From an uncultured Actinomycetes bacterium (GTDB lineage: Bacteria > Actinomycetota > Thermoleophilia > UBA2241): a stretch of 64,000 nucleotides of DNA. The notes beneath the pieces are model-generated. The model was given only the letters and a program-made list of their open reading frames with translations, was not told the DNA's origin and did not search any database. Positions 7,535 through 57,637 of this stretch are shown piece after piece (positions within the stretch are counted from its first letter, which is position 1; every line of letters starts with the position of its first letter). Location of the stretch: NCBI GenBank assembly GCA_963755025.1, contig CAVWIH010000017.1, positions 54,078 through 118,077 of the forward strand, written 5' to 3'. A program made the translations under genes and the position numbers.

Positions 7535-7629
7535 CGCGCCCGTCGTCTGACGCGACGGCCAGACCCCGGCGTCGCACCGGCAACCCCCGACCGAGGCCGC
7601 TCCTTCATGAGATCACCCCTGGCGCTCCA

Positions 7630-14711: not shown

Positions 14712-14808
14712 TGGACGACCGCCGGCGCAGGCTCGGCGCGCCCACCGGCCGTGCGTGTAGCTCGCCCTGAAGGGGGGATAGTAAGGGCAGTACGGCCAGG
14801 GAGTGGAC

Positions 14809-17644: not shown

Positions 17645-17732
17645 TCACACAAGGAGAACGGCGACGGCGGACCGGAGTGCCCGCAGCCGCTCACGGCCCG
17701 AACGCTTGAACACAAACGAAGGAGACAGGCAC

Positions 17733-18632: not shown

Positions 18633-18666
18633 CGGCGCCGCGCCGCATGCGTCCGGACGGCCGACC

Positions 18667-20277: not shown

Positions 20278-20308
20278 GCGCCGCCTCGACACTCGAAAGG
20301 CGGTCCTG

Positions 20309-21079
20309 ATGGCCCGAGCTGCGATAGAAGTGCTGCCCGACACAGACGCGGTCGCACGGCGCGGCGCCGACCTGTTCGCCCTGGCCGCCCAGGAGGCGGC
20401 CGCGGCGCGCCCGGCGTTCACCGCGGCGCTCAGCGGCGGCGACGCGCCGCGCCCGATGTTCGCCATGCTCGCCCGCCAGCAGTTCGCGCAAAAGATCCCC
20501 TGGCGGCGCGTGCACCTCTACTGGGGCGACGAGCGCTGCGTGCCGCCCGACGACGAGGCCAGCAACTACGGCATGGCCTACCAGGCCTTCATCCGTCACG
20601 TGCCGATCCCCGACGACAACGTGCACCGCATGCACGGCGAGGACGAGCCCGACGAGGCGGCGAGGGCCTACGAGCGGCTGCTCTCGCAGCCGCCCGCCCT
20701 CGCCGCCTCGTCGAAGGCCGACCTGCCGGTCCTCGACTTCGTGCTGCTTGGCCTGGGCCCCGACGGCCACACCGCCTCGCTGTTCCCGCACTCGCCGGGC
20801 CTCGGCGTCGAAGACCGGCTGGTCGTCGTGAACGAGGGTGAGGGCACGGGGAAGAGGCTGACCGTGACCTACCCGGTGATCAACGCCGCGCGCCGCGTGC
20901 TGTTCGTCGTCACCGGCGCCGCCAAGGCGGGCATGATCGCCGAGGTGCTCGAGGGCCTGCGCGTCCCCGACGCCGTTCCCGCCCAGGCCGTCGCCCCGGT
21001 GCACGGCTCGGTCACGTGGCTGCTCGACAGGGCCGCCGCCGCCGAGCTGAGCGAACAGCAGGTGGCTGAGGGGCGCTGA
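20309..21079 (+). CDS. pgl: 6-phosphogluconolactonase
   Basis: LSGG, WGDERCVP, SNY, LLGLGPDGHTASLFP motifs. Confidence 0.95.
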   Translation: MARAAIEVLPDTDAVARRGADLFALAAQEAAAARPAFTAALSGGDAPRPMFAMLARQQFAQKIPWRRVHLYWGDERCVPPDDEASNYGMAYQAFIRHVPIPDDNVHRMHGEDEPDEAARAYERLLSQPPALAASSKADLPVLDFVLLGLGPDGHTASLFPHSPGLGVEDRLVVVNEGEGTGKRLTVTYPVINAARRVLFVVTGAAKAGMIAEVLEGLRVPDAVPAQAVAPVHGSVTWLLDRAAAAELSEQQVAEGR

Positions 21080-33369: not shown

Positions 33370-34043
33370 CGGTGCGGGCCGACCTGCCGGCGTGCCGCTT
33401 CTCGGTGTGGCTGGCCGGCATGCGCGCGGCGCTGCTCGAGGGCCGCGGGGTCGACGTGCCCTGTGGCGAGTGCACGGCCTGCTGCACGTCGTCGTACTTC
33501 GTGCACATCGAGTCCGGCGAGACCCAGACGCTCGCTCGTATAGCTCCCGAGCTCGTCTTCGCCGTACCCGGCGCTCCCGGCCGCCGGCTGCTCGGCTACG
33601 ACCGGCGGGGCCGGTGCCCCATGCTGAGCGCGGCCGAGACCTGCTCGATCTACGCCGATCGTCCCCTGACCTGCCGCGTCTACGACTGCCGCGTGTTCGC
33701 CGCGGCCGGCGTCTCGGCCGACCGCGAGGCGATCGCGCGGCGCGCGCAGCGCTGGAGGTTCGCGTGCCCCACCGCCGCCGACCGCGACCAGATGGCGGCG
33801 GTCCGGGCCGCCGCCGGGTTCCTCGCGGAGCACGCCGAGTGCTTTCCCGGCGGCGCCGTGCCCGACGATCCGGCGCAACTGGCCCTTCTCGCGATCAAGA
33901 CTTACCCCGTCTTTCTCGCGGGCGGCGAGGGTTCGACTCTGCCGCTCGACGTCGCGGCCCGGCCTGCCGTCGCGGCGGCCGTGGTCGCCGCCAACGAGGC
34001 CTTCGGGGCACGACGCGGTGGGGGCGCCGCCCGCAGCGGTTGA
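33366..34043 (+). CDS. YkgJ-family (CxxCxxCC) cysteine cluster protein
   Basis: CGECTACC, CPML, CSIY..RP.TCR.YDC; ATGA overlap with the upstream gene. Confidence 0.82.
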   Translation: MTVRADLPACRFSVWLAGMRAALLEGRGVDVPCGECTACCTSSYFVHIESGETQTLARIAPELVFAVPGAPGRRLLGYDRRGRCPMLSAAETCSIYADRPLTCRVYDCRVFAAAGVSADREAIARRAQRWRFACPTAADRDQMAAVRAAAGFLAEHAECFPGGAVPDDPAQLALLAIKTYPVFLAGGEGSTLPLDVAARPAVAAAVVAANEAFGARRGGGAARSG

Positions 34044-34069
34044 CGCGCCGCCCCGCGCCCCCGTAGAGT
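34040..34069 (+). promoter_or_regulatory. Putative distal sigma70 promoter upstream of ord
   Basis: TTGACG-N18-TAGAGT. Confidence 0.45.
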
Positions 34070-34293
34070 CGCCCTCACGACCACTCACCCCCGGAAGACC
34101 TCGGAGGCGGCGACGAAACCAGACTTCACAGAGTTGACGCCCGTCCAGGTCGACCAGCCTCCTCCCGCCTGAGCGCCTTGTGGCGCGGCTACGCCGCGCC
34201 GCCCCCGCAAGGCCGATAGACGCGGACGCCGCCCACTGCGGCACCACCACTGCAGCGCTACCATCAGTCGCGCGACCGTGCCTCGAGGCACTT

Positions 34294-34340
34294 CTGTCAA
34301 CGTGGCGTCCGCGCACGTATACTTGCATCAATTCTATTCA
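34294..34340 (+). promoter_or_regulatory. ord operon promoter plus 17-bp operator-like palindrome
   Basis: CTGTCA-N18-TATACT immediately followed by TGCATCAATTCTATTCA (34324-34340). Confidence 0.65.
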
Positions 34341-34364
34341 GGCACGGCATCCCTGGGAGGGACC

Positions 34365-35375
34365 ATGATCAAGGTAGTCGAATGGGGCACCGGCGAGATG
34401 GGGCAGGGGCTCCTCAAGTTCATCCTCGACCGGCCCAAGGACATCGAGCTCACCGGCTGCATCGTCACGAACCCCGCCAAAGAGGGCAAGACCGTCGGCG
34501 AGCTGCTCGACCGCCCCTGCGACGTCAAGATGACCACCGACTTCGAGAAGGTGCTCGCCACCAAGCCCGACGTCGTCTGCATCAACACCCAGTCCAACTT
34601 GAACGAGGTCGAGCCGCAGATCGTGCCGGCCGCCAAGTCGGGCGCCGACGTCATCTGCATCGCCGAGAAGCTCGCCTACCCGTGGGCCAGCGACCCGGAG
34701 CGCGCCGACCTGTTCGACCGCGTCGCCAAAGAGAACAACGTCTCCATTTTGGGCACCGGCATCAACCCCGGCTTCATGCTCGACGCCCTCATCGTCATGT
34801 GGAGCTCGATCTGCATGCGCGTCGACAGCATCGAGGCCTCGCGCGTGAACGACCTCTCGCCGTTCGGTCCCACCGTCATGACCGGCCAGGGCGTGGGCAC
34901 CACGGTCGAGCAGTTCGAGAAGGGCGTCGCCGACGGCAGCATCGTGGGCCACATCGGGTTCCCTGAGTCGATCGAGCTCATCGCCAAGGCCCTCGGCTGG
35001 AAGATCGACGAGATCGTCGAGACCCGCGAGCCCATCGTCACCAAGGTCGAGCGCTCCACGCCGCACGTCAAGGTGCCGGCGGGCTGGGTCGCCGGCTGCA
35101 AGCAGGTCGGCAAGGGCTACAGCGACGGTGAGCTCAAGATCCACCTGATCCACCCCCAGCAGATCCACCCCGAGCTGGCCGACCAGGGCACCGGCGACTA
35201 CATCAAGATCATCGGCGACCCCATGGTGAACATGGCCAACACCCCCGAGATCCCGGGCGGCAAGGGCACCTACGCGAGCACCGGCAACTACATCCCGCTC
35301 ATGAAGGCCGCCCCGGCCGGCATGCTGACCGTCGTCGACATGCCGCTGCCGCGGTTCCTGGGCCCCACCAAGTAG
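34365..35375 (+). CDS. ord: 2,4-diaminopentanoate dehydrogenase
   Basis: WGTGEMG, LGTGINPGF, RVNDLSPFG, GHIGFPES, HPQQIHP, PEIPGG motifs; operon context. Confidence 0.92.
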   Translation: MIKVVEWGTGEMGQGLLKFILDRPKDIELTGCIVTNPAKEGKTVGELLDRPCDVKMTTDFEKVLATKPDVVCINTQSNLNEVEPQIVPAAKSGADVICIAEKLAYPWASDPERADLFDRVAKENNVSILGTGINPGFMLDALIVMWSSICMRVDSIEASRVNDLSPFGPTVMTGQGVGTTVEQFEKGVADGSIVGHIGFPESIELIAKALGWKIDEIVETREPIVTKVERSTPHVKVPAGWVAGCKQVGKGYSDGELKIHLIHPQQIHPELADQGTGDYIKIIGDPMVNMANTPEIPGGKGTYASTGNYIPLMKAAPAGMLTVVDMPLPRFLGPTK

Positions 35376-35410
35376 ACCGACTCCTACATCAGGAGCGAAA
35401 GAAGGACCGC

Positions 35411-35743
35411 ATGACTGAGACACAGCAGGCCCACGCGGGCGACTGGGTCGAGGTCGAGTGCGTGCTGCTCGAGCCCGCCGACAGGTCGACGAACCTGCCG
35501 CCGGAGACCGCCGAGAAGCCCCTCAAGATGTGGGTCAAAGGGTTCGCCGAGGGCCAAGCGGCCCTCGGCGGACCCGTCACGGTCGAGACCATGACGGGCC
35601 GCAAGGTCGCGGGCACGCTGTCGGCGATCAACCCCGGGTACTTCCACACCTTCGGCGAGCCGATTCCCGAGCTCGCGCACATCGGCAAAGACCTGCGCGC
35701 CCGGCTCGCGGCCTATCGCGCCGCCCAAAGCGGGGGTGCCTGA
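35411..35743 (+). CDS. ortA: 2-amino-4-oxopentanoate thiolase alpha subunit
   Basis: GDWVE, LEP..R...P..T...PL.MWVKGF, TGR, NP.Y.HTFG.PIPEL motifs. Confidence 0.92.
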   Translation: MTETQQAHAGDWVEVECVLLEPADRSTNLPPETAEKPLKMWVKGFAEGQAALGGPVTVETMTGRKVAGTLSAINPGYFHTFGEPIPELAHIGKDLRARLAAYRAAQSGGA

Positions 35744-37166
35744 TGGCCAGCAAGTTCGACGCCATCATGGCCCGTCGCGGCGAGATCATGCGCCGCGCGC
35801 TGGGCATGGACTACAGCGAGTTCGAGCTGTCGCCGATCGCCTTCGACTACGAACGCATGATGGGCGACCACGGCTACAGCCTCGACGACATCGTCGCCAT
35901 CCAGACCAAGGCCGGCGTGGGCCACACGCCGCTGCTCGAGCTGCACAACCTGACCGACCTCGTGCGTTCCGTGAGCCGCGGCCGGGCAAGGGCGCGCGCC
36001 TGTTCGTCAAAGACGAGGCCGCCAACCTGGCCGGCGCCTTCAAGGACCGCCGCGCCTCGGTCTCCATCCACGTCGCTCGAGAGAAGGGCTACGAGGGCGT
36101 CATCGCCGCGACCTCGGGCAACTACGGCGCCGCGGTCGGCCAGCCAGGCGGCCCGCGCCAGCCTGCGCTGCATCATCGTCCAGGAGGCATACGACAGCCG
36201 CAAGATCGGCCAGCCCGAGATCGTCGAGAAGGCCCGCATCTGCGAGGCCTACGGCGCCGAGGTCGTGCAGCTCACGGTCGGTCCCGAGCTCTTCTTCGCA
36301 CTTGGTCGAGCTGCTCGACCAGACCGGCTACTTCGCCGCCTCGCTGTACAGCTCGTTCGGCGTCTCGGGCATCGAGACCCTCGGCCTCGAGGTCGCCGAG
36401 GAGATGCGCGCCCTGACCGGCGCCGCCCCGACCGCCTGCGTCGTCACTCACGCCGGCGGCGGCAACACCACCGGCACCGCCCGCGGCCTGCAGCCGCGCC
36501 GGCGCCGCCGACACGCAGATCGTGGCCGCCTCGGTCGACCTGTCGGGCCTGCACATGGCCTCCGACGTCGACTTCAACCGCAAGAGCTTCACCACCGGCC
36601 ACACCGGCTTCGGCGTGCCCTTCGCCACCTGGCCCGACCGCGCCGACGTGCCGCGCAACGCGGCCCGGCCGCTGCGCTACATCGACCGTTACCTCACGGT
36701 CACCCAGGGCGAGGTCTTCTACATGACCGAGGCTCTGGTCAAGCTCGAGGGCCTCGAGCGCGGCCCGGCCGGCAACACGGCCATGACGGCCGCCGTCTCG
36801 CTGGCCCGCGAACTGCCGCGCGAGGCCACCGTCGTGGTGCAGGAGACCGAGTACACGGGCGCCGGCAAGCACCACTGGGCGCAGCTCAACTTCGCCCGCC
36901 AGATGGGCGTCGAGGTGCGCTCCGGCGACCCGCGCGACAACAAGCCGGGCACGGTGATCGTCGTGCCCGAACGCCTCGAGCAGATCCAGGCCGTCGACTT
37001 CGACGTCGCCCACATGCGCTCAAGCTACGTGCGCAACGCGGTGCAGGCGGCGCCCGAGGGCTACACGCCGACCGCCGCCGACATCGCCTTCCTGGCCGCC
37101 GACTCAGGCTCGAGCGCGGCCGACGTCGAAGCGATGCTCGCCGACCTCGCCGCCAAGGAGGCCTGA
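35743..37166 (+). CDS. ortB: 2-amino-4-oxopentanoate thiolase beta subunit (PLP); about 4 frameshifts
   Basis: Fragments in successive frames: IAFDYE..GVGHTPL, KDEAAN..G.FKDRRA, ATSGNYG, DSR.IGQPEI, HAGGGN, FNRKSFTTGHTGFG, GLERGPAGN, QETEYTGAGKH. Confidence 0.88.
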
Positions 37167-37171
37167 GCGCC

Positions 37172-37534
37172 ATGCGCGAAGACACCTACCTGCAGGACCG
37201 CGGACACCTCGCGGGACTCACCGACGAACAACTCGAAGCGCGCTTCTGGGCGCTCGCCGAGGGCGCCGTGGCGCCGCTCGTCGAGCTCGCCCGCACGCAC
37301 ACCTCGCCCTCTATCGAGCGCAGCGTGCTCATGCGCATGGGCATCGACTCGCGCACCTGCATGGCCGTCGTCGCGGAGTGCGAGAAGCGCGCCCTGCTCG
37401 GTCACGGCGCCGGTCAGATCGTGCTGCACTGCGCCACCGCCCAGAACGTGTCGGTGGTCGAAGCGGCCGGGCTGCTCGCCGCCGGCGAAGCCTGGGACAC
37501 GGTCGAACAGAAGTGGGGGGCGCCCCATGCCTGA
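37172..37534 (+). CDS. oraS: D-ornithine 4,5-aminomutase alpha (S) subunit
   Basis: HL..LTDEQL..RFW.L, THTSPSIERSVLMRMG, LLGHGAG motifs. Confidence 0.92.
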   Translation: MREDTYLQDRGHLAGLTDEQLEARFWALAEGAVAPLVELARTHTSPSIERSVLMRMGIDSRTCMAVVAECEKRALLGHGAGQIVLHCATAQNVSVVEAAGLLAAGEAWDTVEQKWGAPHA

Positions 37535-39731
37535 CGCGCCCCTCAAGCCCAACGAGAAGCTCGACGTGAAGGCGCTGCTCGAGGGCATCGCCGACTACCG
37601 CCCGCGGCGCAAGGGCTGGCACTGGCGCGAGCCGGTGGCCGACCAGAAGCTCGGGCCTTTCATGTACAAGGAGACCTCGAAGGGCCTCGCCCACAGCGTG
37701 CCGCTGCCGGCCGCCCACTACTTCGGCGACATCGACCCGCAGCCCGACTGCGTGGTCACCACCGAGATCGCCAGCGGGCGCTTCGAAGACGACATCCGCC
37801 GCATGCGCATGGCGGCCTGGCACGGCGCCGACCACATGATGGTCATCCGCACCGCCGGGCAGAGCCACATGGACGGTCTGCTCGAGGGCACACCTGAGGG
37901 CATCGGCGGCATCGCCGTGACCCGCAAGCAGGTGCGCGCCACGCGGCGCGCCATCGACCTGATCGAAGACGAGGTCGGCCGGCCCATCAACTTCCACTCC
38001 TACGTGAGCGGCGTGGCCGGCCCCGAGATGGCCGTCATGTTCGCCGAAGAGGGCGTCAACGGCGCTCACCAGGACCCGCAGTACAACGTCCTCTACCGCA
38101 ACATCAACATGTACCGCAGCTTCGTCGACGCCGCCGTGGCCAAGCACGTCATGGCCAGCGTGCGCATGGCCCAGATCGACGGCGCCCACAACGCCAACGC
38201 CACGGCCCGCGAGGCCTGGAAGGTCATGCCGGAGCTGCTCGTGCAGCACGCCATCAACTGCGCCTACTCCGAGGCGGCCGGCATGCCCAAGGCCGACATC
38301 TGCCTGTCGACCGTGCCGCCCGACTCGCCGCCGGCGCCCTGCATGCGCATGGACCTGCCCTACGCCGTCGCCCTGCGCGACCTCTTCGGGCAGTACAAGA
38401 TGCGCGCCCAGCAGAACACGCGCTACATGGAGTCGTGCGGCCGCGAGGCCACCGTCAGCCATGTCATGAACCTCATGATCAGCCGCCTGACGAGCGCCGA
38501 CATCCAGAGCACGATCACCCCCGACGAGGGCCGCAACGTGCCCTGGCACTACAACAACGTGCACGCCGTGAACACCGCCCGCCAGTCGCTCGTGGGCATG
38601 GACGGCCTGCGCGAGTTCGTGAAGCTCGACCTCGACAACCCCGAGTTCCAGAGCGGCGTGCGCGAGTTGAAGGAGCGCGCCGTGCTGTTCCTCGAGGCCA
38701 TGGAGCGCGACGGCGGCTACTTCGCCGCGGTCGAGCAGGGTTACTTCGTCGACTCCGGTGAGTACCCCGAGACCAACGACGACGGCATCGTGCGCTTCGC
38801 CGACGGCGGTGTGGCGGCCGGCACCATCGTCGAGCGGGCCGACGACTACCTGGCGCCGGTCTGCCACCACTTCGGCGACAACCACCTGCCCGACGGGCTC
38901 GCCAAGCCGTGCGACCCGATCGGCGGCTGCACGCTGTGCGACGCCGAGAAGGTGCCCTTCACCGACGAGCTCGACCCCGAAGACAACGTCAACGTGCGCC
39001 TCGAGCGCACCGCCGCGCTGCGCGACAAGGGCCTGATCACGCCCGAGGTCGAGTGGGCCGGCGACGGCATCGTCGTGGTCACGCTCTTCCTGCCGGCCTC
39101 GGAGCGGGTGGCCGAGTTCGCCGCCCTCGAGCTCGCCAAGGCGATGAACCTGCACGACCCCGAGGTCATCCACAAGCAGGTCATGCACCCCGCCGAAGGC
39201 ACGCTGGTCGAGGTCAAAGGGCGCCTCGAGGTGACCATCGACCCGGCCACCCTCGTCATTCCCCCGCCGCCCGACATACTCTCGGCCGACGAGGTGCGCG
39301 CCTTCGTGAAGGAGCGCGGCCTCAAGGTCGTCGGCGCCACGGTCGGCGAAGACGAGCACTCGGTGGGCATGCGCGAGATCATCGACATCAAGCACGGCGG
39401 CCTCGAGGGCTTCGGCGTGGCCTGCGAGTACCTGGGCACCTCGGTGCCGGTCGAGAAGGTGCTCGACGCCGCCATCGAGCACGCCGCCGACGCGGTGCTG
39501 ATCTCGACGATCATCACCCACGGCGACATGCACCGCCAGAACATGGAGAAGCTCGCCGACCTGGCCGTCGAGAAGGGCGTGCGCGACAAGCTGCTGCTCA
39601 TCGCCGGCGGCACCCAGGTGACCGCCGAACAGGCCCGCAGCTGGGGCATGGACACCGGCTTCGGGCGCGGCACGAAGGGCATCGACGTGGCCTCGTTCAT
39701 GGTCAAGGCTCTGCGCGAGCGCAGCAAGTAG
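37527..39731 (+). CDS. oraE: D-ornithine 4,5-aminomutase beta (E) subunit (AdoCbl + PLP)
   Basis: EIASGRFEDDIRRMRMAAWHGADH, HQDPQYN, GEDEHSVG (B12-binding DxHxxG), IDIKHGG (PLP lysine). Confidence 0.96.
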   Translation: MPDAPLKPNEKLDVKALLEGIADYRPRRKGWHWREPVADQKLGPFMYKETSKGLAHSVPLPAAHYFGDIDPQPDCVVTTEIASGRFEDDIRRMRMAAWHGADHMMVIRTAGQSHMDGLLEGTPEGIGGIAVTRKQVRATRRAIDLIEDEVGRPINFHSYVSGVAGPEMAVMFAEEGVNGAHQDPQYNVLYRNINMYRSFVDAAVAKHVMASVRMAQIDGAHNANATAREAWKVMPELLVQHAINCAYSEAAGMPKADICLSTVPPDSPPAPCMRMDLPYAVALRDLFGQYKMRAQQNTRYMESCGREATVSHVMNLMISRLTSADIQSTITPDEGRNVPWHYNNVHAVNTARQSLVGMDGLREFVKLDLDNPEFQSGVRELKERAVLFLEAMERDGGYFAAVEQGYFVDSGEYPETNDDGIVRFADGGVAAGTIVERADDYLAPVCHHFGDNHLPDGLAKPCDPIGGCTLCDAEKVPFTDELDPEDNVNVRLERTAALRDKGLITPEVEWAGDGIVVVTLFLPASERVAEFAALELAKAMNLHDPEVIHKQVMHPAEGTLVEVKGRLEVTIDPATLVIPPPPDILSADEVRAFVKERGLKVVGATVGEDEHSVGMREIIDIKHGGLEGFGVACEYLGTSVPVEKVLDAAIEHAADAVLISTIITHGDMHRQNMEKLADLAVEKGVRDKLLLIAGGTQVTAEQARSWGMDTGFGRGTKGIDVASFMVKALRERSK

Positions 39732-39816
39732 ACTGACGCATCATGAGCCCCTGCACACGCACAGAGACGCACGCACACCCGCGCACCGACACGCGCTCGG
39801 GCGCAGCGGCGGTCGC

Positions 39817-41199
39817 GTGACCGTCGCGGGCAGCGCGGGGCGGGGGCGGGCGGCGCCGCAGGCGCCGCCCGCCCCATCGACGCCCTGGTCGCCGAGATCG
39901 GTTCGACCACCACCGTGGTCTCGGCGTTCGACGGCCTCGGCGGTTACCCCGACACGCGAACCGCGGTTGCTCGGCCAGGGCGTGGCGGCGACCTCGGTGG
40001 CCGACGGCGACGTCACGATCGGCGTCGGCGCGGCCCGGGCGGCCCTCGAAGAGCAGATCGGGCCGCTCACGCCGCGCCTCACGCTGGCCACCAGCTCGGC
40101 CGCCGGCGGCCTGCGCATGACCGTCCACGGCCTCACCCAGCGCATGACCGCCATGGCGGCCCGCGAAGCGGCTCTGGGGGCGGGCGCCGTCGTGACCTAC
40201 CAGACGGCCGGCCTGCTGCGCGACCACGACCTGCGCAAGATCGCCGAAGCGCGCCCCAGCCTCGTGCTGCTGGCCGGCGGGGTAGAGGGCGGCGACTACG
40301 AGACCATCCTCGCCAACGCGCGGCGGCTCTGCGAGCTCGAGCTGCGCCCGATCGTGGTGTACGGCGGCAACTCGGAGGTCGCCGACGACGCCCGCGCGCT
40401 GCTCGAGCACGCCGGCTTTCGCGTGCGCGTCACCGCCAACGTCTATCCGGCCGTCGACGAGCTCGACATCGTGCCGGCGCGAGCCGTCATTCACGACGCC
40501 TTCGAAGAGCACATCACCCACGCGCCCGGCATGGAGCGCATCGGCGAGGTGGTGAACGGCCACATCCTGCCCACGCCGGGCGCCGTGCTGCTGGCCGCCG
40601 AGCGCCTCGCCGACGACCTCGGCGACCTGGTCGTGGTCGACGTCGGCGGGGCTACGACCGACGTGCACTCGATCACCGACGGCAGCCCCGAGCTCAGCGC
40701 CATCCAGACCGAGCCGCAGGCCCACAGCCGGCGCACGGTCGAAGGCGACCTGGGCACCTTCGTGAGCGCGGCCCACGTGGCCGCCATGATGCCGGCCGCC
40801 GAGCGCCCCGCGGCGCTGCCGCCGGCGCTGCCCGCGACGCCGGCCGAGATCGCGGCGGCGAGCGCCCTGGCCGCGTTCTGCGCCGTGACCGCGGTGCAGC
40901 GCCACGCCGGGCGGCTCGCCCACCTCTACACGCCGACCGGGCGCCAGACCGTCGCCCGCGGCCGCGACCTCACCGCCTGCCGCCTGCTGATCGGCACCGG
41001 CGGCGCGCTCACCCGCCTGCCCGGCGGCGAGGCCATGCTGCAGGCCACGCGCGGCGCCGGCGGCGAGCGGCTGCTGCCGCCGGCCGAGGCGCGCTGCCTG
41101 CTCGACAGCGACTACATCGTGGCCGACGCCGGCGCCCTGCTGGCTCACTTCGACGGCGCCGCCGTGGTCGCGCTCATCAGGTCGAGCCTGGCGTTCTAG
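39817..41199 (+). CDS. GlmL/MutL-like B12-mutase reactivating factor; two compensating indels at about 39840 and 39958
   Basis: DALVAEIGSTTT (in an alternate frame), TSSAAGGLRM, LAGGVEGG, PTPGAV, DVGGATTDVHS, RTVEGDLG motifs. Confidence 0.85.
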   Translation: MTVAGSAGRGRAAPQAPPAPSTPWSPRSVRPPPWSRRSTASAVTPTREPRLLGQGVAATSVADGDVTIGVGAARAALEEQIGPLTPRLTLATSSAAGGLRMTVHGLTQRMTAMAAREAALGAGAVVTYQTAGLLRDHDLRKIAEARPSLVLLAGGVEGGDYETILANARRLCELELRPIVVYGGNSEVADDARALLEHAGFRVRVTANVYPAVDELDIVPARAVIHDAFEEHITHAPGMERIGEVVNGHILPTPGAVLLAAERLADDLGDLVVVDVGGATTDVHSITDGSPELSAIQTEPQAHSRRTVEGDLGTFVSAAHVAAMMPAAERPAALPPALPATPAEIAAASALAAFCAVTAVQRHAGRLAHLYTPTGRQTVARGRDLTACRLLIGTGGALTRLPGGEAMLQATRGAGGERLLPPAEARCLLDSDYIVADAGALLAHFDGAAVVALIRSSLAF

Positions 41200-41299
41200 A
41201 GGTCTCAGCGGGGAAGGGCGTGACCGAGGCGAGCGCTCCCGGAGCCCTTCCGGCGAGCGTGATGATAGACTCCGCCGACGGGCGACGACGAGGGGGAAC

Positions 41300-41794
41300 G
41301 TGCCTATCTGCGAGGTCTGTGGCGCCGCGGTCGCGGCCGACGAGCGCTGCCCGTCGTGTGGCGCCGGCGGCGCGCCGGCGGCCCCCGACCGGGCCATGGT
41401 CGCGCCCGGCCAGACCACGGCAGCGCCCGGCCCGACCACGGCAGCGCCCGCCTGGCCGCCCGCGCCGGCTTGGCCGCCGCTCGCGCCGGCCTGGCCGCCG
41501 CCCCCGCTACCATCCTTCGTGGCCCAGGTAACGGCTCCGGTCCCGGCTCCGGGCGCGGCTTGGGGAGCGGCTTGGGGAGCGCCATCCTGCGTCCTTCTGG
41601 CCGTGCGCGCCCTCGTGACGAAGCGCCGCCTGCCCGCCCGCCTCGTGGCCTCATGCGGCCTTGCGGCGATCGTCGTGTTCGTCGTCGAGTTCGTGCGCTG
41701 GGCGGTGCCGGGCAGCCTTGTCCTGGTGCTGTTCGTCAGCATCGCCGGCGCCGGCCTGCTCGTGGCCGGGGCGCTCAGGCTGGCGCGGCGCTGA
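41300..41794 (+). CDS. Hypothetical zinc-ribbon plus Pro-rich plus membrane protein
   Basis: GAGGGG RBS; CEVC...CPSC, then a Pro/Ala stretch and three hydrophobic segments. Confidence 0.55.
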   Translation: MPICEVCGAAVAADERCPSCGAGGAPAAPDRAMVAPGQTTAAPGPTTAAPAWPPAPAWPPLAPAWPPPPLPSFVAQVTAPVPAPGAAWGAAWGAPSCVLLAVRALVTKRRLPARLVASCGLAAIVVFVVEFVRWAVPGSLVLVLFVSIAGAGLLVAGALRLARR

Positions 41795-41960
41795 CGGCGC
41801 TGCGAGCGACAGACGCCATGAGGGCGACCACCGCGGCCTCGTCGACGCGCCGCGGGGTGACGGGCGAGGCGCGCCGCGGGGCGAGGGGCGAGGCGCGCCG
41901 CGGGGCGACAGTCCGGCGCAGGGTGACGGTCGGGGCCCGGCGGGGCATCCACAGTCGTAC

Positions 41961-46747
<4,787 letters not shown>

Positions 46748-46788
46748 GGACAGCGGCATCCGCTGCGCGGCCCTGCGGCTGGATGGCG

Positions 46789-47574
46789 ATGCCTGAGGGC
46801 GACACCATCCACTACGCGGCCCGGCAGGTGGGCGGTGCGCTCACCGGCCACGTGCCCGACCGCATCGTCACGCCGCACCCGCGCTTTGCCCGCGACCGCT
46901 GGCCCGAGCGCCTTGCCGGCCGTCCGGTCGAGGCGGTCGAGGCGCGCGGCAAGCACCTCCTGCTGCATTTCGGCGGCGGCCTCGCCGTTCACTCCCACCT
47001 GCGCATGACCGGCGCCTGGCGGGTGCTACCCCGCGGCGAGCGCTGGCCGCGCTCGGCGCACGCCGCCTGGCTGGTGATCGGTCGCGGCGACGACGACGTC
47101 GTGCAGTTCAACGGACCTGTGCTCGAGCTGCTCACCGAAGCCCGGCTGCGTTCCGACCCGCGCCTGCGCGGCCTGGGCCCCGACCTCGTGGCGGCGGCGC
47201 CCTTCGACGAGGCGCGCTTTCTGCGGCGCCTGCGCGAGGACGACCCCACGCGCCCCCTGGGCGACGCCCTGCTCGACCAGCACACGGTGGCCGGCATCGG
47301 CAACTTCTGGAAGTCCGAGGGCTGCTGGGCGGCCGGCGTCGACCCGTGGCGGCCGCTCGCCGCCGTGAGCGACGCCGAGGCGCTGGCCGTCGTGCGCGCC
47401 CTGCGGCCGCTCATGCAGCGCTCGGCCGCCGACGGCCGGCAGGACCGCTTTCGCACGATCTACGAGCGCGCCGGCCGGCCCTGTCCGCGCTGCGGGGCGG
47501 GCAGCCGCATCCGCCTGCGGGGCCAGGGCGACGACAACCGCACCACGTACTGGTGCCCCTCCTGTCAGGCGTGA
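46789..47574 (+). CDS. nei: Fpg/Nei-family DNA glycosylase (Nei2-like)
   Basis: N-terminal MPEG, GKHL, HLRMTG, LLDQ..AGIGN, C-terminal zinc finger CPRC...CPSCQ. Confidence 0.92.
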   Translation: MPEGDTIHYAARQVGGALTGHVPDRIVTPHPRFARDRWPERLAGRPVEAVEARGKHLLLHFGGGLAVHSHLRMTGAWRVLPRGERWPRSAHAAWLVIGRGDDDVVQFNGPVLELLTEARLRSDPRLRGLGPDLVAAAPFDEARFLRRLREDDPTRPLGDALLDQHTVAGIGNFWKSEGCWAAGVDPWRPLAAVSDAEALAVVRALRPLMQRSAADGRQDRFRTIYERAGRPCPRCGAGSRIRLRGQGDDNRTTYWCPSCQA

Positions 47575-47654
47575 GCCGCGCGGGCGGTGCGGGGGGCGCC
47601 GGCGGCGAGCGGCGCGCGGCGAACGCCGGCGGCTGCAGAGCGACGGCGCCCGGC

Positions 47655-47703
47655 TTGCGCTTTCGGCGTCATCCGTCATAAGCTTGTGTATCAAGAATAT
47701 GCA
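47655..47703 (+). promoter_or_regulatory. orr-arcE promoter plus 17-bp operator-like palindrome
   Basis: TTGCGC-N18-TAAGCT followed by TGTATCAAGAATATGCA (47687-47703). Confidence 0.6.
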
Positions 47704-47711
47704 GGAGGGCC

Positions 47712-48827
47712 ATGACCGCTCGCGCGACGCTCACCATCGACCTCGACAAGATCGCCGACAACGCTCGCCGGGTCGCGGCCGCGCTCGGTGACCTGTACGT
47801 GGTCGGCGTGACCAAGGTCACCTGCGGCGACCCCGAGGTCGGCCGCGCGCTGCTGGCCGGCGGGGCGCGGGCGCTCGGCGAGTCGCGCCTCGAGAACGCG
47901 GCGCGGCTGCGCGACGCCGGCATCGAGGCGCCCATCTGGCTGCTGCGCTCGCCGCCGCCGGCGCTCGCCGCCGACACGGTGCGCCTGACCGACGTCTCGC
48001 TCGAGAGCGAGCTCGAGACCGTGCACGCCCTCGATGCCGCGGCGGCGCGCGCCGGCAGGCGTCACGGCGTGATCGCCATGGTCGACCTGGGCGATCTGCG
48101 CGAGGGCATGCTGCCGGCCGACCTGCCCGCCTTCGTCGACTCAGTCGAGCGCCTCGAGCACGTCGAGCTCGACGGCATCGGTGTGAACCTCACCTGCTAC
48201 GGCGCCGTGTGTCCGACGCCCGTCAACCTGGGCGAGCTGGCGGCGCTCGCCGCTCAGACCGAACGGCGCCTGGGGCGCCGCCTGGCCTTCGTGTCAGGCG
48301 GCAACTCGGGCAGCATCGCCCTGACGGTGGCGGGCGACATGCCCGCGGCCATCAACAGCCTGCGCATAGGCGAGACCATCCTGCTGGGCGTCGACACCCT
48401 CACCCGCGAGCCCACTCTCGGCCTGCACACCGACGCCTTCGTCGTCGCGGCGCCGGTGATCGAGTGCAAGGTCAAGCCCAGCATGCCCGTCGGCGAGACC
48501 GCCCAGGACGCCTTCGGCAACCGCCCCACCTTCGTCGACCGCGGCGAGCGGCGGCGCGCCATCTGCGCCCTGGGCCGCCAGGACGCGCCCGCCGAAGGGC
48601 TCGTGCCGTGCGACCCGCGCGTCGAGGTGCTGGGCGCCTCGAGCGACCACCTCATCCTCGACGTCGAGGCGGTCGAACCGCCGCCGCGCCTGGGAGAGAC
48701 CTTCAGCTTCGTACCCGGCTACGGCGCGACGTTGCAGTTGAGCACGTCGCCGTACGTCGACACCGCGTTTGTCCACTCCGCCGGCCTGACGCCCAAGATC
48801 GTGGCGCGGAGTACCCCCATCACTTAG
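47712..48827 (+). CDS. orr: Ornithine/alanine racemase family PLP enzyme (likely ornithine racemase)
   Basis: GVTKV (PLP lysine), ESRLEN, DLGDLREG, NLTCYG, SGGNS, LRIGE, KPS.P.G, GASSDH motifs. Confidence 0.8.
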   Translation: MTARATLTIDLDKIADNARRVAAALGDLYVVGVTKVTCGDPEVGRALLAGGARALGESRLENAARLRDAGIEAPIWLLRSPPPALAADTVRLTDVSLESELETVHALDAAAARAGRRHGVIAMVDLGDLREGMLPADLPAFVDSVERLEHVELDGIGVNLTCYGAVCPTPVNLGELAALAAQTERRLGRRLAFVSGGNSGSIALTVAGDMPAAINSLRIGETILLGVDTLTREPTLGLHTDAFVVAAPVIECKVKPSMPVGETAQDAFGNRPTFVDRGERRRAICALGRQDAPAEGLVPCDPRVEVLGASSDHLILDVEAVEPPPRLGETFSFVPGYGATLQLSTSPYVDTAFVHSAGLTPKIVARSTPIT

Positions 48828-48839
48828 CGAGGAGTGAGC

Positions 48840-50162
48840 ATGGCAGACAGAACCAGGGTCCTGATCATGGGAGCCGCGGGCCGCGACTTCCACAACTTCA
48901 ACACCTACTTCCGCGACAACGAGCACTACGAAGTGGTGGCCTTCACCGCCACGCAGATCCCCTACATCAACGACCGCAAGTACCCGGCCGAGCTCGCCGG
49001 CAAGCTCTACCCGAACGGCATCCCGATCCACGACGAGTCCGAGCTCGCCGAGCTCGTCAAGAAGCACCGTCCCGAGCAGGTCGTCTTTGCCTACTCCGAC
49101 GTGCCCTACGAGTACCTCATGCACCGTTCGGCGCTGGTCAACGCCCTGGGCTGCGACTTCCGCCTGATGGGTCCCGACCACACGATGGTGAGGTCGACCA
49201 AGCCGGTCATCGCCGTGTGCGCCGTACGCACCGGCGCCGGCAAGAGCCAGACCACCCGCAAGATCCAGACCATGCTGCGCGAGGCCGGCAAGAAGGTCGT
49301 CTCGATCCGCCACCCCATGCCCTACGGCGACCTCGTCAAGCAGCGCGTGCAGCGCTTCGCCACGGTCGAAGACCTCGCCAAGCACGAGTGCACGATCGAA
49401 GAGATGGAAGAGTACGAGCCGCACGTCGTGGCCGGCAACGTCATCTACGCCGGCGTCGACTACGAAGCGATCGTGCGCGAGGCCGAAAAAGAGGCCGACA
49501 TCATCCTCTGGGACGGCGGCAACAACGACTACAGCTTCTACAAGGCCGACCTCTACATCACCGTCGCCGACCCGCATCGCCCGGGCAACGGCCTCGTCTA
49601 CTACCCCGGCGAGGTCAACATGCGCCTGGCCGACGTCGTCGTCATGAACAAGATCGACTCGGCCGACAGGGCCGGCATCGAAGCCGAGCTCGCCGCCGTG
49701 CGTTCGGTCAACCCCAACGTGCAGATCATCATGGGCGCCTCGCCGGTCACTGTCGACAAGCCCGAGCTGATCCGCGGCAAGCGCGTCCTCGTGGTCGAAG
49801 ACGGCCCCACGCTCACCCACGGCGAGATGAAGTACGGCGCCGGCATGGTGGCCGCCCGTCAGCTCGGCGCGGCCGAGTTCATCGACCCGCGGCCGTTCGC
49901 CACGGGCGAGATCAAGGCGACCTTCGAGAAGTACCCCAACATCGGCACGCTGCTGCCCGCCATGGGCTACTCCGCGCAGCAGCTGAACGACCTCGAGACG
50001 ACCATCAACGCTTCGGGCGCCGACGTGGTCGTGATCGGCACGCCGATGGACCTGCGCCGTATCGTCAACATCAAACTGCCAGCCGTGCAGGTGGGCTACG
50101 ACCTGCAGGAGATCGGTCATCCGACCCTCGAAGACGTCCTGCGCGAGCGCAAGTTCATCTGA
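48840..50162 (+). CDS. arcE: Arginine synthetase ArcE-like (COG2403 / cyclic 2,3-diphosphoglycerate synthetase family)
   Basis: IMGAAGRDFHNFN, AFTATQIP, AVRTGAGKS (P-loop), RHPMPYG, EEMEEYE, WDGGNND, EDGPTLTHG, PAMGY; flanked by a racemase and OTCase. Confidence 0.8.
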   Translation: MADRTRVLIMGAAGRDFHNFNTYFRDNEHYEVVAFTATQIPYINDRKYPAELAGKLYPNGIPIHDESELAELVKKHRPEQVVFAYSDVPYEYLMHRSALVNALGCDFRLMGPDHTMVRSTKPVIAVCAVRTGAGKSQTTRKIQTMLREAGKKVVSIRHPMPYGDLVKQRVQRFATVEDLAKHECTIEEMEEYEPHVVAGNVIYAGVDYEAIVREAEKEADIILWDGGNNDYSFYKADLYITVADPHRPGNGLVYYPGEVNMRLADVVVMNKIDSADRAGIEAELAAVRSVNPNVQIIMGASPVTVDKPELIRGKRVLVVEDGPTLTHGEMKYGAGMVAARQLGAAEFIDPRPFATGEIKATFEKYPNIGTLLPAMGYSAQQLNDLETTINASGADVVVIGTPMDLRRIVNIKLPAVQVGYDLQEIGHPTLEDVLRERKFI

Positions 50163-50201
50163 CGCTCACCCGAACCATCTGCTACCATCTCGTGTCAGTC
50201 G

Positions 50202-50238
50202 ACGGGGGGCGGGCCGCCAAAGGCGGCCCGCCCCCCGT
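50202..50238 (+). terminator. Hairpin between arcE and argF
   Basis: acggggggcgggccgcc-aaa-ggcggcccgccccccgt. Confidence 0.55.
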
Positions 50239-50280
50239 TCCACGAACAGCTCTCGGACACCTATAAACGAAGGAGGCCGC

Positions 50281-51240
50281 ATGACCGCGTTGCAGGACCG
50301 CATCACCAGGCTGGGCCTCACCGGCCGTGACTTCCTCACCGTGCACGACTACGCGCCCGACGAGGTCGGCGCGCTGCTCGACCTGGCGGTCGAGCTCAAG
50401 GCCGCCCAGAAGGCGGGCGTGGCGCACGCCGTGCTGGCGGGCAAGGCCGTCGGCATGATCTTCACCAAGACCTCGACGCGCACGCGCATCTCGTTCGAGG
50501 TGGGCATCGCCCAGCTCGGCGCCCAGCCGCTCTACCTGAACGCCAACGACATCCAGCTGCGCATCGGCGAGACCATGAAGGACACCGGCAATGTGCTCTC
50601 GCGCTACCTCGACGGCATCATGATCCGCACCTACGCCCAGGCCGACGTGGTCGACCTGGCGGCCAGCGCCACGGTGCCCATCATCAACGGCCTGACCGAC
50701 GACCATCATCCCTGCCAGGCGATGGCCGACGCGCTCACCGTCAGGGAGCACTGCGGCGGGCTCGAGGGCCGCAAGCTGGTCTACTCGGGCGACGGCAACA
50801 ACGTGGCCCACTCGCTGGCCGAGGTCGGCGCCAAGACCGGCATGCACGTGGTCATCTGCACGCCCGACGACTTTCGCCCCGACGCCGACGTCATCGCCCG
50901 CGCCCGCGCCGACGCCAGCGAGACCGGCGCCACGATCGAGCTCACGAGCGACCTACACGCCGCCGTCAAGGGCGCCGACGTGATCTACACCGACACCTTC
51001 ACCAGCATGGGCCAGGAGTCCGAGCACGACGTGCGCCTCGCCGCCCTGCGCGACTACCAGGTCAACGACGAGCTGCTGGCGCTGGCCGGCCCCCAGGTGC
51101 ACGTCATGCACTGCCTGCCGGCGCACTGGGGCGAGGAGATCACCGAGGCGGCGCTCTACAGCCCGCAGTCGGTCGTCTTCGACCAGGCCGAGAACCGCCT
51201 GCACGCCCAGAAGGCCGTCATGGCGGCGCTGATCGGCTGA
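50281..51240 (+). CDS. argF: Ornithine carbamoyltransferase
   Basis: STRT, HPCQ, GDGNNV, YTD..SMG, HCLP, ENRLH motifs. Confidence 0.96.
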   Translation: MTALQDRITRLGLTGRDFLTVHDYAPDEVGALLDLAVELKAAQKAGVAHAVLAGKAVGMIFTKTSTRTRISFEVGIAQLGAQPLYLNANDIQLRIGETMKDTGNVLSRYLDGIMIRTYAQADVVDLAASATVPIINGLTDDHHPCQAMADALTVREHCGGLEGRKLVYSGDGNNVAHSLAEVGAKTGMHVVICTPDDFRPDADVIARARADASETGATIELTSDLHAAVKGADVIYTDTFTSMGQESEHDVRLAALRDYQVNDELLALAGPQVHVMHCLPAHWGEEITEAALYSPQSVVFDQAENRLHAQKAVMAALIG

Positions 51241-51288
51241 GGGGTCGCCGCCGCGCCGGCGGCGCTGAGCTCCTGGGGCGCTGGGCTC

Positions 51289-52890
51289 CTAGCGCCACGC
51301 CGTGAACCAGGCGAGGCGGGCGTAGTAGGCGAACGACCACGACTGCGACACGACGAAGGGCAGCCAGGCCAGGGCCAGCCCGACGACGGCGCCGACGTAG
51401 GTCCAGGCGACGATCGCACCGGCGCCGCCCCGGGTACCTGAGCCGGCAGTCGAGCCGGCGCTTGCCGCGGGGGTCGTGAGCGCGCCGGGGCGGGCGCCCG
51501 CGAGCCCGCCGCCCGTTCGCGCCGCCCGGTCGCGCGCCCAGACCACGACCGCGAAGGCCGCGAGGGCGGCGAGGGCCGCCAGCCGCACCGCGGGCGTGCC
51601 GCCCGCCGCCGCGCCCACGGTGGCGGCGCCGACGGCCACGCAGAGCGTCGCCCAGCGGCGGCCCAGCGGCCGCGGCCCGGCCAGGCGCGCCAGCGCCACG
51701 GCCACGAGGATGGCCAGGAACGGGATGGCCGGCGTGAGGTAGTAGATGTACGACTGGCGGCTCGTGGCCAGCCAGGGCAGGTAGAGCACGGCGACCAGCG
51801 CGGGCGCCGCCGCCAGGTTCGGGTCGCGGCGCCGCACCGCCACCCAGGCGAGCCAGACGAAGGCGGCGATCGCGCCCCAGAACAGCAGCGGGTTGCCGAT
51901 GGCGATCAGCCCCAGCACGCCGTGCGGCGAAAGCTGCCAGCGGTACCAGATCGGCGTGGCGTCGAAGATCCAGGTGAGCGGTCGCGAAGACATGCTCGAG
52001 GTGCCCGACACGTTCCAGTTGAAGCTCGCCATGTAGCCCTGCAGGTGCAGCCACTGGCGCACCGTGTGGCCGCTGGCGAAGTAGTCGGCGTAGCTCGCCA
52101 CGTAGACCAGCAGGGGCGCCACGACGAGCCAGACGGCGGCGCGGGCAAGCGTGGCGCCACGAACCGCGCCGGCCGCGCGGCCGGCGCCCGCGGCGGCGCG
52201 TGTGGGGCGATCGTCGGCCCCCGCGCCGGCCGCGCGGCCGGCGCGCCGCGCACGCACCCGGTCGAACGCCACGATGGCCACGGCGCCCAGCAGGGCGAGG
52301 GCTCCCGACCACTTGCTGGCGAGCGCCAGGCCCCCGGTGAGTCCGCAGAGCGCGAGCCAGCGCGTCGCCCTGCCGGACTGCACGTAGCGCAGGGCGCAGT
52401 AGATGCAGACGGCCGACCAGAGCGCGACGAAGGGGTCGAGCACGCCGATGCGCGACTCGGTGATGAGCATGGTGTCCGAGGCGGCCAGCACCAGGGCGGC
52501 GAGCGCCCAGGGCGGAGACAGGCGCAGGCGGCGAGCCAGCGGGTAGACGAGCGCGATCAGCAGGGTGCCGGCGAGGGCCGACGGCACGCGCCAGCCCCAG
52601 GGATCGTCGCCCAGCAACGCGATGCCGGCGGCGATCGAGAGGGTGCCCAGCGGCGGGTGGGCCAGCGAGAGGCTGTCGCCGGGCTTCCACGGCGACGGCG
52701 CCCGCGGTCCGATGTCGCCGTGCACGACGGCGCGCGCGTCGTGCACGTAGTAGTGCTCGTCGAAGACGAGCGTGGGGAAGGCGTCGAGCGAGACCACCCG
52801 GGCCGCCGCCGACAGCGCCACGACGAGCAGCACGAGCACGAGGACCACCCTCGGTGCGGTGCTGCGGCGAGCCGGGGCCGCGACGGTCAT
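51289..52890 (-). CDS. PMT-like (GT-C/GT39) lipid-carrier-dependent glycosyltransferase, copy 2
   Basis: VFDEHYY, HPPLG, WGWR, SRIGVLD, SKWSG, IGNP motifs; TGATG coupling to copy 1. Confidence 0.88.
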   Translation of the reverse strand: MTVAAPARRSTAPRVVLVLVLLVVALSAAARVVSLDAFPTLVFDEHYYVHDARAVVHGDIGPRAPSPWKPGDSLSLAHPPLGTLSIAAGIALLGDDPWGWRVPSALAGTLLIALVYPLARRLRLSPPWALAALVLAASDTMLITESRIGVLDPFVALWSAVCIYCALRYVQSGRATRWLALCGLTGGLALASKWSGALALLGAVAIVAFDRVRARRAGRAAGAGADDRPTRAAAGAGRAAGAVRGATLARAAVWLVVAPLLVYVASYADYFASGHTVRQWLHLQGYMASFNWNVSGTSSMSSRPLTWIFDATPIWYRWQLSPHGVLGLIAIGNPLLFWGAIAAFVWLAWVAVRRRDPNLAAAPALVAVLYLPWLATSRQSYIYYLTPAIPFLAILVAVALARLAGPRPLGRRWATLCVAVGAATVGAAAGGTPAVRLAALAALAAFAVVVWARDRAARTGGGLAGARPGALTTPAASAGSTAGSGTRGGAGAIVAWTYVGAVVGLALAWLPFVVSQSWSFAYYARLAWFTAWR

Positions 52891-56782: not shown

Positions 56783-56998
56783 CCGCAAACCGCCGCAAAC
56801 GGGGCGCCGTCGGCGCGGCGCAGAACGGCGCCGGCCGCACCGGCCGCGCCGCGTGTGATATCACTTCCTTGGCTCACAAAGCGGGCCGCCGGGCGCGCCG
56901 CACTCGCGTACGCCCAGGCGATCTGGGTCTGGAAGCGACCTCAGGCGACAAGTCCGCGGGCGCTCGTCGCCGCCGCGGCGAAGAGGGGGGAATACCCG

Positions 56999-57637
56999 AT
57001 GACCGACCCACAGCGCGAAGTGCTCGCCACGGTGAAAGACAAGGTGGCCAATCCGGCGCCGTTGGGGCTCATGGCGTTCGGCATCACCACCGTGCTGCTC
57101 AACCTGAGCAACGCCGGCCTGTTCGGCATGAACACCATGATCCTCGCCATGGCCGTGTTCTACGGCGGCCTCGCCCAGGTCGTCGTGGCCCTGCAGGAGT
57201 ACAAGAAGAACAACGTCTTCGGGGCCACGGCTTTTGCCTCGTACGGCCTGTTCTGGCTGTCGTTCGTGGGCATGCTCGTGTTCCCCAGGTGGATGGGCAT
57301 CGCGCCGCCGACCACGACGGCCGTCGGCTGGTACCTGCTCGCCTGGGGTGTGTTCACCGGCCTCATGTTCGTGGCGACGCTGCGCATCACCGTGTCGCTG
57401 CAGGTGGTCTTCGGCAGTCTCACGGTCCTCTTCGTGCTGCTCGCCCTCTCGGCCTGGACGGGCAACGCCACGCTCGGCAAGGTCGCCGGGTGGGAGGGCG
57501 TGTTCGTGGGCCTGTCGGCCGTCTACGGCGCCGTCGCGCAGATCTGGAACGAGGTCTACGGCCGCGTCGTGCTGCCGCTCGGGCCCGTGTCCGTGTCGCA
57601 CCGCGTCAAAGTCATGCCGTCGACCAGCGGTCGCTAG
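56999..57637 (+). CDS. satP: Acetate transporter, SatP/GPR1/FUN34/YaaH family
   Basis: [29 protein letters not shown] motifs. Confidence 0.9.

Follow-up and report, generated by a model that had tools for sequence, protein, structure and literature searches.

The DNA analysed here (the window) is a stretch of 64,000 nucleotides (nt) from an uncultured Actinomycetes bacterium (Thermoleophilia; UBA2241), namely positions 54,078-118,077 of the forward strand of contig CAVWIH010000017.1 in assembly GCA_963755025.1. The source genome assembly amounts to 3.37 Mb in 39 contigs and is 84% complete, with 5% contamination. Our subject is a trio of genes at 47712-51240 (orr, arcE and otc) that is situated 6.5 kb downstream of an ord-ortAB-oraSE-or4 cluster for the oxidative degradation of ornithine. 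Because the GC content of the window is 70-77%, genes were called by third-position GC together with family scans against Pfam and NCBIfam, the latter with its per-model bit cut-offs. Throughout, G000 denotes the source genome, other G numbers the genomes of relatives, L numbers the loci of relatives, and C numbers contigs; P0001 is the arcE-like P-loop protein of the window and f1 the Thermoleophilia family of the source genome. The original prediction, made from the letters of the window, had announced three genes here, with a P-loop gene lying between an ornithine racemase and an ornithine carbamoyltransferase (OTCase). Three open reading frames (ORFs) are indeed found on the same strand, with a third-position GC of 0.93-0.98 and in the order orr-arcE-otc:

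47712..48827, plus strand: orr, ornithine-racemase-like pyridoxal phosphate (PLP) enzyme of 371 amino acids (Ala_racemase_N, E 8.5e-28; NF040742, 357 bits)
48840..50162, plus strand: arcE-like P-loop enzyme, putative arginine synthetase (ORF from 48834; assigned by family homology, context and predicted fold)
50201..50239, plus strand: perfect 18-bp GC hairpin between arcE and otc (z -3.87; kept in L049 and L050; without a T-run after it)
50281..51240, plus strand: otc (argF/arcB), OTCase of 319 amino acids (TIGR00658, 417.5 bits, cut-off 280.85; both Pfam domains)

The stop codon of orr (48825-48827) leaves a gap of 12 nt to arcE, whose true start is probably the ATG at 48840: an AGGAG precedes it by 6 nt, and the resulting 440 amino acids match the length of the near homologues. 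The gap between arcE and otc measures 118 nt, and the hairpin therein may act as a partial terminator or affect mRNA stability; a contig from one sequencing run has a 10-nt deletion at 50190, just before the hairpin. Consensus scans of 47300-51600 returned a single promoter-like and a single terminator-like site, which lie within arcE on the minus strand and are at chance level, and no Rfam family reached its gathering score over 33000-52000. The Orr protein has NF040742 as its top NCBIfam match and carries Lys35, Asn159 and Cys162, the last two within the motif NLTCY. By position and motif, not by alignment, these residues correspond to Lys36, Asn161 and Cys164 of the studied ornithine racemase (OrnR), which are the PLP lysine, the asparagine replacing the stacking histidine, and the catalytic cysteine by which OrnR differs from alanine racemase (PMC13397332).

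The genes ord, ortAB and oraSE, which the original prediction had mentioned as being nearby, were found at 34365-39731 and are followed by or4, ending at 41199:

34365..35375, plus strand: ord, 2,4-diaminopentanoate dehydrogenase (NF040740, 435.8 bits, cut-off 400; start from the alignment with relatives)
35411..35743, plus strand: ortA, 2-amino-4-oxopentanoate thiolase alpha subunit (NF040739, 110 bits, cut-off 70)
35740..37166, plus strand: ortB, thiolase beta subunit (three frames as assembled, owing to single extra bases near 36298 and 36490)
37172..37531, plus strand: oraS, D-ornithine 4,5-aminomutase small subunit (tblastn with the 120-amino-acid OraS of relatives, 75-78% identity)
37527..39731, plus strand: oraE, D-ornithine 4,5-aminomutase large subunit, B12 and PLP (NF040743, 1307 bits, cut-off 800)
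39876..41199, plus strand: or4, GlmL-related ornithine degradation protein, putative mutase reactivase (one frameshift near 39950)

All genes of the oxidative ornithine degradation set (ord, ortAB, oraSE, or4 and orr) are present and linked. The low score of ortB (330 bits against a cut-off of 550, from a C-terminal fragment only) is due to the frameshifts, which leave no more than that fragment. Family scans place an Lhr helicase and Nei2 between or4 and orr, at approximately 41961-47574.

We consider it likely that orr-arcE-otc is a transcription unit supplying D-ornithine from arginine to the neighbouring oxidative pathway. To judge by its family membership, ArcE would convert L-arginine, ADP and Pi to L-citrulline, NH3 and ATP. 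The OTCase would phosphorolyse citrulline to L-ornithine and carbamoyl phosphate, from which a carbamate kinase encoded on contig C31 would gain a second ATP, and Orr would racemise L- to D-ornithine. OraSE (with B12 and PLP), Ord and OrtAB would then carry D-ornithine by way of 2,4-diaminopentanoate and 2-amino-4-oxopentanoate to acetyl-CoA and alanine, and a single regulator acting at a palindrome TGCAT-N7-ATGCA would probably switch both units together. The original prediction had drawn the same route, from arginine over citrulline (with a gain of ATP), L-ornithine, D-ornithine and 2,4-diaminopentanoate to D-alanine and acetyl-CoA, and both the gene identities and the shared palindrome speak for it. 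Enzyme activities, direction of flux and regulation are what we infer; the observations behind them are the gene identities, the synteny, the shared motif, the absence of arcA from the assembly and the presence of arcC, argG and argH.

The strongest evidence for joint control of the two units comes from the regions upstream of ord and orr, where the following elements were recognized:

34040..34069, plus strand: predicted promoter-like TTGACG-18-TAGAGT before the ord leader (read from the sequence; position kept in L049-L051 and L159)
34113..34172, plus strand: small upstream ORF ending in ...VDQPPPA-stop, with GGAGG 5 nt upstream; it reads TKPDFTELTPVQVDQPPPA-stop
34183..34201, plus strand: GC hairpin after the small ORF, GGCGCGGC-TAC-GCCGCGCC (read from the sequence)
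34295-34323: promoter-like TGTCAA-17-TATACT directly before the ord palindrome (read from the sequence)
34324..34340, no strand assigned: operator-like palindrome TGCATCAATTCTATTCA, 41 nt before the ord ATG
47655..47684, plus strand: predicted promoter-like TTGCGC-18-TAAGCT before orr (kept in 6 of 8 aligned upstream regions)
47687..47703, no strand assigned: operator-like palindrome TGTATCAAGAATATGCA, 25 nt before the orr ATG

In aligned upstream regions from several genera, ord and orr display a common layout: a -35/-10-like pair, the 17-bp palindrome TGCAT-N7-ATGCA, a ribosome-binding site, and the ATG. With up to one mismatch permitted, the palindrome has 25 matches in 15 loci (297,748 nt), 18 of them no more than 60 nt upstream of ord or orr. 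It occurs at orr in 11 of 13 loci with orr-arcE; the start of ord is covered in 11 loci, 7 of which have the palindrome there. G024 has an extra exact copy between orr and arcE. The whole source genome contains 31 matches, two of which are the ord and orr sites, the remaining ones being mostly inside ORFs. Such a palindrome fits a repressor-type operator overlapping the transcript start. As it lies between the -10 element and the ribosome-binding site of both units, one regulator probably switches both; the two units look co-regulated, and this favours the catabolic route.

The small ORF upstream of ord begins with ACG here and with ATG in two other genera; all six of its differences from L049 are synonymous, and its core VDQPPP(A/G) is kept in L155 and L159. 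Together with the hairpin (34103-34201), this conserved ORF may represent a leader peptide or an attenuator. The half-sites of the palindrome resemble those of the actinobacterial ARG boxes, which have the consensus TGCAT-N4-ATGCA and so differ in spacing. Near the arg cluster on contig C34 no TGCAT/ATGCA match with N4 spacing was found, only two weak N3 sites (C34:186716 and C34:190599). Upstream of the carbamate kinase gene arcC, at C31:19801, lies an exact 12-mer TGCATACATGCA, the only exact match of that spacing in the source genome, and in G013 (L147) an N7 palindrome precedes arcC by 149 nt; these upstream palindromes are hints that arcC may belong to the same regulon as ord and orr. More tentatively still, and with considerable doubt on our part, the arginine module and the ornithine oxidation operon could form one regulon under a repressor or activator binding TGCAT-N7-ATGCA, with ord additionally gated by a ribosome-stalling VDQPPP(A/G) attenuator. 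By analogy with amino-acid-sensing arrest peptides, the ord leader could then sense ornithine or arginine. Arginine fermentation in this Thermoleophilia family would yield three ATP, from ArcE, carbamate kinase and acetyl-CoA, and would be controlled at two levels in a way that is new.

The P-loop protein very probably belongs to the ArcE family, an assignment that draws on transitive homology, genomic context and predicted fold. It has a Walker A motif RTGAGKS at residues 132-138 (in the 442-amino-acid reading from 48834) and no Pfam or NCBIfam family above threshold. At E <=1e-3 its family comprises 3675 representatives (50% clustering), of which 654 remain at <=1e-30, and a scan of species genomes identified at least 80 ArcE-family loci in many bacterial and archaeal phyla. 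Among the matches listed, all 80 are 44-66% identical to P0001 over essentially the full length, and their fetched flanks hold a carbamate kinase in 18 cases, an OTCase in nine, and one or both in 19. A carbamate kinase and/or an OTCase next to homologues of TK2200, the arginine synthetase of Thermococcus kodakarensis, has been described (PMC11032458). With a protein of Staphylothermus marinus F1 the identity is 49% (E 1e-154), and the Desulfurococcales, the order of this archaeon, mostly carry ArcE (PMC11032458, Discussion). Archaeal-seeded homologue searches led to DPANN and Bathyarchaeota, and a crenarchaeal profile to Staphylothermus and Ignisphaera; neither returned a Thermococcus protein, and no Thermococcales occur among the 80 loci listed. 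The structure is predicted with confidence (predicted local distance difference test, pLDDT, 93.9; predicted template-modelling score, pTM, 0.92), and the model's second-best match in a fold search is LpxK 4ehy (E 4.7e-8, target-normalised template-modelling score, TM, 0.65), the very entry reported for TK2200p by its authors (PMC11032458, section 8). Identity to family members, neighbours and an LpxK-like fold thereby lend support to the ArcE identity put forward in the original prediction, TK2200 itself having been compared indirectly.

Elsewhere in the genome the arginine genes are consistent with a catabolic role. Carbamate kinase matches occur only on C31 and C34; the original prediction had stated that the window contains none, and had expected arcC elsewhere in the genome and arcA to be missing from it. 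The arcC gene is situated at C31:19894-20818 in two frames (216 + 162 bits) and is intact and above cut-off in five of five well-assembled relatives. Arginine deiminase (arcA) was not found in the source genome, at its 84% completeness, the best match having 36 bits against a cut-off of 489. ArcE is single-copy. Both argG (490 bits) and argH (491 bits), well above cut-off, follow argC-argJ-argB on C34, where no argF lies between the arg genes, and carB is located on C18. With argG, argH and carB present, arginine synthesis does not depend on ArcE, and this speaks for the catabolic direction; the same argument has been made for Pyrococcus furiosus (PMC11032458). The OTCase of the window is the only match above cut-off in the 84%-complete genome, relatives having 1 to 7 such matches each. 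Up to seven OTCase-family paralogues are present in the relatives G010, G011 and G024, several paired with a carbamate kinase (e.g. G010:C5:1114071-1116084), which suggests further catabolic modules for carbamoyl compounds that are absent from, or lost in, the present assembly.

The 24 genomes sampled from the same family include 22 with an ArcE match, weak or fragmentary in two cases; outside the family ArcE was detected in 4 of 16 other genomes of the class. OraE above cut-off was found in 22 of 151 class genomes, all but one in the same family. From 16 f1 relatives the 20-kb context around arcE or oraE was taken. In 12 of these orr and arcE are adjacent, and otc comes next in ten of the 12, being missing in G013 and G018. 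G098 (L159) has the nine genes ord-ortA-ortB-oraS-oraE-or4-orr-arcE-otc contiguously. The space between or4 and orr is occupied in relatives by Lhr-Nei2, by an Fe-S/DUF4405 protein, by a glycosyltransferase (the last two on the other strand), or by nothing at all; gene turnover is concentrated in this space (41961-47574 in the window), the cluster being conserved elsewhere. Metagenome loci were collected as contigs with an OraE 78-98% identical and a GC of 0.64-0.74, a sample made up of high-GC kin, with independent lineages outside it. Among the 17 with at least 600 nt beyond orr, arcE is directly next in ten, elsewhere in one and absent in six. Four class-level relatives with a 55% identical ArcE have no ornithine-oxidation genes nearby. 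Being conserved in one Thermoleophilia family, the arrangement is not peculiar to the source genome; the original prediction had called the coupling of ArcE with ornithine oxidation unusual, an overstatement given this conservation and given that both ArcE and the ornithine operon have been published in actinobacteria. Most f1 genomes also contain a two-gene pair that matches the aminomutase model at approximately 140 + 110 bits (e.g. G013:C1:657383-659301), probably a lysine 5,6-aminomutase and as such a second B12-dependent amino-acid mutase.

In the RNA libraries of two wetland runs, contigs with a similarity of at least 95% span the genes from ord to oraE and, in part, orr, arcE and otc. 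They are a weak hint of expression in related strains and no more, and their depth cannot rank genes.

A number of observations weigh against the catabolic unit as we propose it. Some concern the genes themselves: Orr scores 357.1 bits with the ornithine racemase model NF040742, under its cut-off of 480, albeit over the full length (3-349 of 351), and Or4 reaches 470 bits with NF040744, under a cut-off of 600. As assembled, ortB carries two frameshifts and or4 one, and the carbamate kinase gene, itself unlinked, has a frameshift and one TAG stop. The link of the P-loop protein to the characterized TK2200 is indirect and runs via other family members, and the available parts of the arginine synthetase literature yielded no assayed bacterial ArcE. 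Others concern the arrangement: variable inserts part the two units, which are not one operon here, arcE is absent from the six metagenome loci mentioned, and no ornithine-oxidation genes were seen at the 80 diverse ArcE loci (among the matches listed), so that the arrangement is a trait of one clade. The relatives being kin, conserved synteny and counts are not independent evidence. As to control, no regulator gene lies consistently beside the cluster in the relatives examined. Finally, with a single OTCase found and an arg cluster without argF, the OTCase must presumably also work anabolically and probably serves both directions, including arginine synthesis; to repress it jointly with a catabolic operon would pose a difficulty, except under a regulator that responds to arginine.

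This last point leads to an alternative in which ArcE and OTCase are mainly synthetic: ornithine and carbamoyl phosphate would give citrulline, which ArcE would aminate with ammonia and ATP to arginine, the adjacency of orr being historical. In T. kodakarensis the reversible ArcE reaction supported the formation of arginine in vivo (PMC11032458), and the lone OTCase and the argC-argJ-argB...argG-argH cluster without argF would suit such a role. A second arginine route is nevertheless superfluous beside argG and argH, the unit shares its operator-like motif with the catabolic ord operon, ArcE stands beside carbamate kinase at the 18 listed loci noted above, and a second OTCase could be missed in an incomplete genome whose close relatives have up to seven; on balance we regard a mainly synthetic role as unlikely. 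Distinctly unlikely in our opinion is that the neighbourhood just reflects common descent within one family and means nothing functionally. The genomes that show the arrangement do all belong to one family or its environmental kin, inserts vary between the units, and none of the 80 listed ArcE loci of other lineages has it; yet the operator-like palindrome is shared and conserved at the starts of both units, orr belongs biochemically to the ord pathway but sits in a probable transcription unit with arcE, and the linkage survives at least four different insert states.

Nor do we give much credence to a module that is real but decaying, with ortB, or4 and arcC as pseudogenes and the route non-functional in the source genome, as the two extra bases in ortB, the frameshift in or4, and the frameshift and TAG stop in arcC would have it. 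Two frameshifts (at about 42770 and about 44634) likewise occur in Lhr, an unrelated gene of this 17-kb region, a fact that points to assembly errors, and the shifted pieces retain 65-88% identity to relatives, each in its own frame. In two DNA runs, short-read contigs of at least 95% similarity have one base fewer at 36295 (X1, X2), 36492 (X1) and 44634 (X2), three of the sites already inferred as frameshifts, at a depth of 3-4 and possibly from other strains, one of the runs being possibly the source sample. The frameshifts in ortB, or4, Lhr and arcC are accordingly much more probably assembly errors than marks of pseudogenes, and the assembly probably carries indel errors throughout.

Hardly credible, in contrast to the ArcE assignment, is an identity of the P-loop protein as a cyclic 2,3-diphosphoglycerate synthetase (cDPGS), the name that database records give to near homologues. 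NCBI labels several homologues at 81-91% identity 'cyclic 2,3-diphosphoglycerate synthase', clusters of the family in a protein atlas are called 'putative GTPase/cDPGS', and cDPGS is the best solved-structure match both by sequence and by fold. The enzyme of Methanothermus fervidus (8oru, 8ork; also 9sxb) indeed shares the multi-domain P-loop architecture, but its genomic context is unrelated. The sequence match to 9sxb, the only solved relative found by sequence, is 30.9 bits (E 1.5e-6) over 110 residues, as against the full-length identity to proteins adjoining carbamate kinase or OTCase. The fold match to 8oru, top in the search (E 5e-17), has 15% identity and a TM of 0.46 in the model, with 14-15% for 8oru and 8ork together. 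On these values the protein does not group with the cDPG synthetases, an outcome that would have spoken against the original prediction, there being no close similarity to the solved enzymes. In the 2024 paper cDPGS served only as a low-similarity outgroup (PMC11032458, Discussion), and the gene neighbours and the shared operator-like motif concern arginine and ornithine, not cDPG. The label 'cyclic 2,3-diphosphoglycerate synthase' seems misleading for this ArcE-type family.

The nearest characterized counterpart of the arginine module is the arginine synthetase pathway of T. kodakarensis, made up of ArcE (TK2200), ArcB (TK0871) and ArcC (TK2158) (Michimori et al. 2024, PMC11032458; 2026, PMC13260591). 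Both have a P-loop enzyme, very probably of the same large family, the pairing with OTCase, a carbamate kinase in the genome and the lack of an arginine deiminase, and the LpxK entry 4ehy is the second-best fold match here and the one reported for TK2200p; argG and argH are present as in P. furiosus. The host here is, however, a bacterium (Thermoleophilia), and arcE forms a unit with an ornithine racemase, linked to B12-dependent ornithine oxidation, whereas in Thermococcus proline is the stated fate of the ornithine, and pyrimidines and hydrogenase maturation are that of the carbamoyl phosphate. The carbamate kinase gene is unlinked here, and the relation to TK2200 is indirect.

For the oxidative part the comparison is with Clostridium sticklandii, whose ord-ortAB-oraSE-orr cluster was reportedly described by Fonknechten et al. 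in 2009. The same genes ord, ortAB, oraSE, or4 and orr make up its oxidative ornithine pathway, and it similarly converts arginine by way of citrulline to ornithine, and D-ornithine to acetate/acetyl-CoA, alanine and ammonia (PMC3091704). Its initial step is catalysed by the hydrolytic ArcA, unlike the putative ATP-conserving ArcE of the window; orr is found here with arcE and otc, not at the end of the ord operon, and a soil or peat actinobacterium with a high GC content is the host. In anaerobic Firmicutes, actinobacteria and thermotogae, a catabolic OrnR clade is encoded within the operon for ornithine fermentation (Phillips et al. 2025, PMC13397332). The Orr of the window resembles this clade in being a Fold III PLP enzyme and in having Lys35, Asn159 and Cys162, the catalytic cysteine specific to OrnR; it differs in falling under the NCBIfam Orr cut-off, and the available text of PMC13397332 does not mention ArcE as an OrnR neighbour.

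Neither module is a new kind of system. ArcE, its spread in bacteria (its hosts include Actinomycetota, e.g. Intrasporangium; PMC11032458) and its pairing with OTCase and carbamate kinase are already published, as is the oxidative ornithine cluster, also in actinobacteria. What is new is the TGCAT-N7-ATGCA palindrome at both ord and orr, conserved across genera. A title and abstract search of the literature since 2024 on arginine synthetase and ornithine (the supplementary trees and gene maps of PMC11032458 lying outside it) found, among the papers listed, no ArcE wired to ornithine oxidation, no publication was found that joins 'arginine synthetase' and 'aminomutase', and the word 'racemase' does not occur in PMC11032458 or PMC13260591. 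Arginine synthetase has so far been characterized only in Thermococcus. In the route proposed here, a putative ArcE would replace arginine deiminase at the head of a complete path from arginine to acetyl-CoA, and the racemase, probably transcribed with arcE, would commit ornithine to oxidation; this would give ArcE a concrete and testable physiological role in soil and peat bacteria.

The window also contains genes for cobalamin salvage or synthesis (CbiS-like, CbiB) and an acetate uptake transporter (AceTr), at 6178-8568 and 56855-57637, that would suit a pathway which depends on B12 and forms acetate. Two transketolase genes and a complete tkt-tal-pgi-gnd-zwf-pgl cluster, at 1693-3726 and 12642-21079, belong to ordinary pentose-phosphate metabolism.

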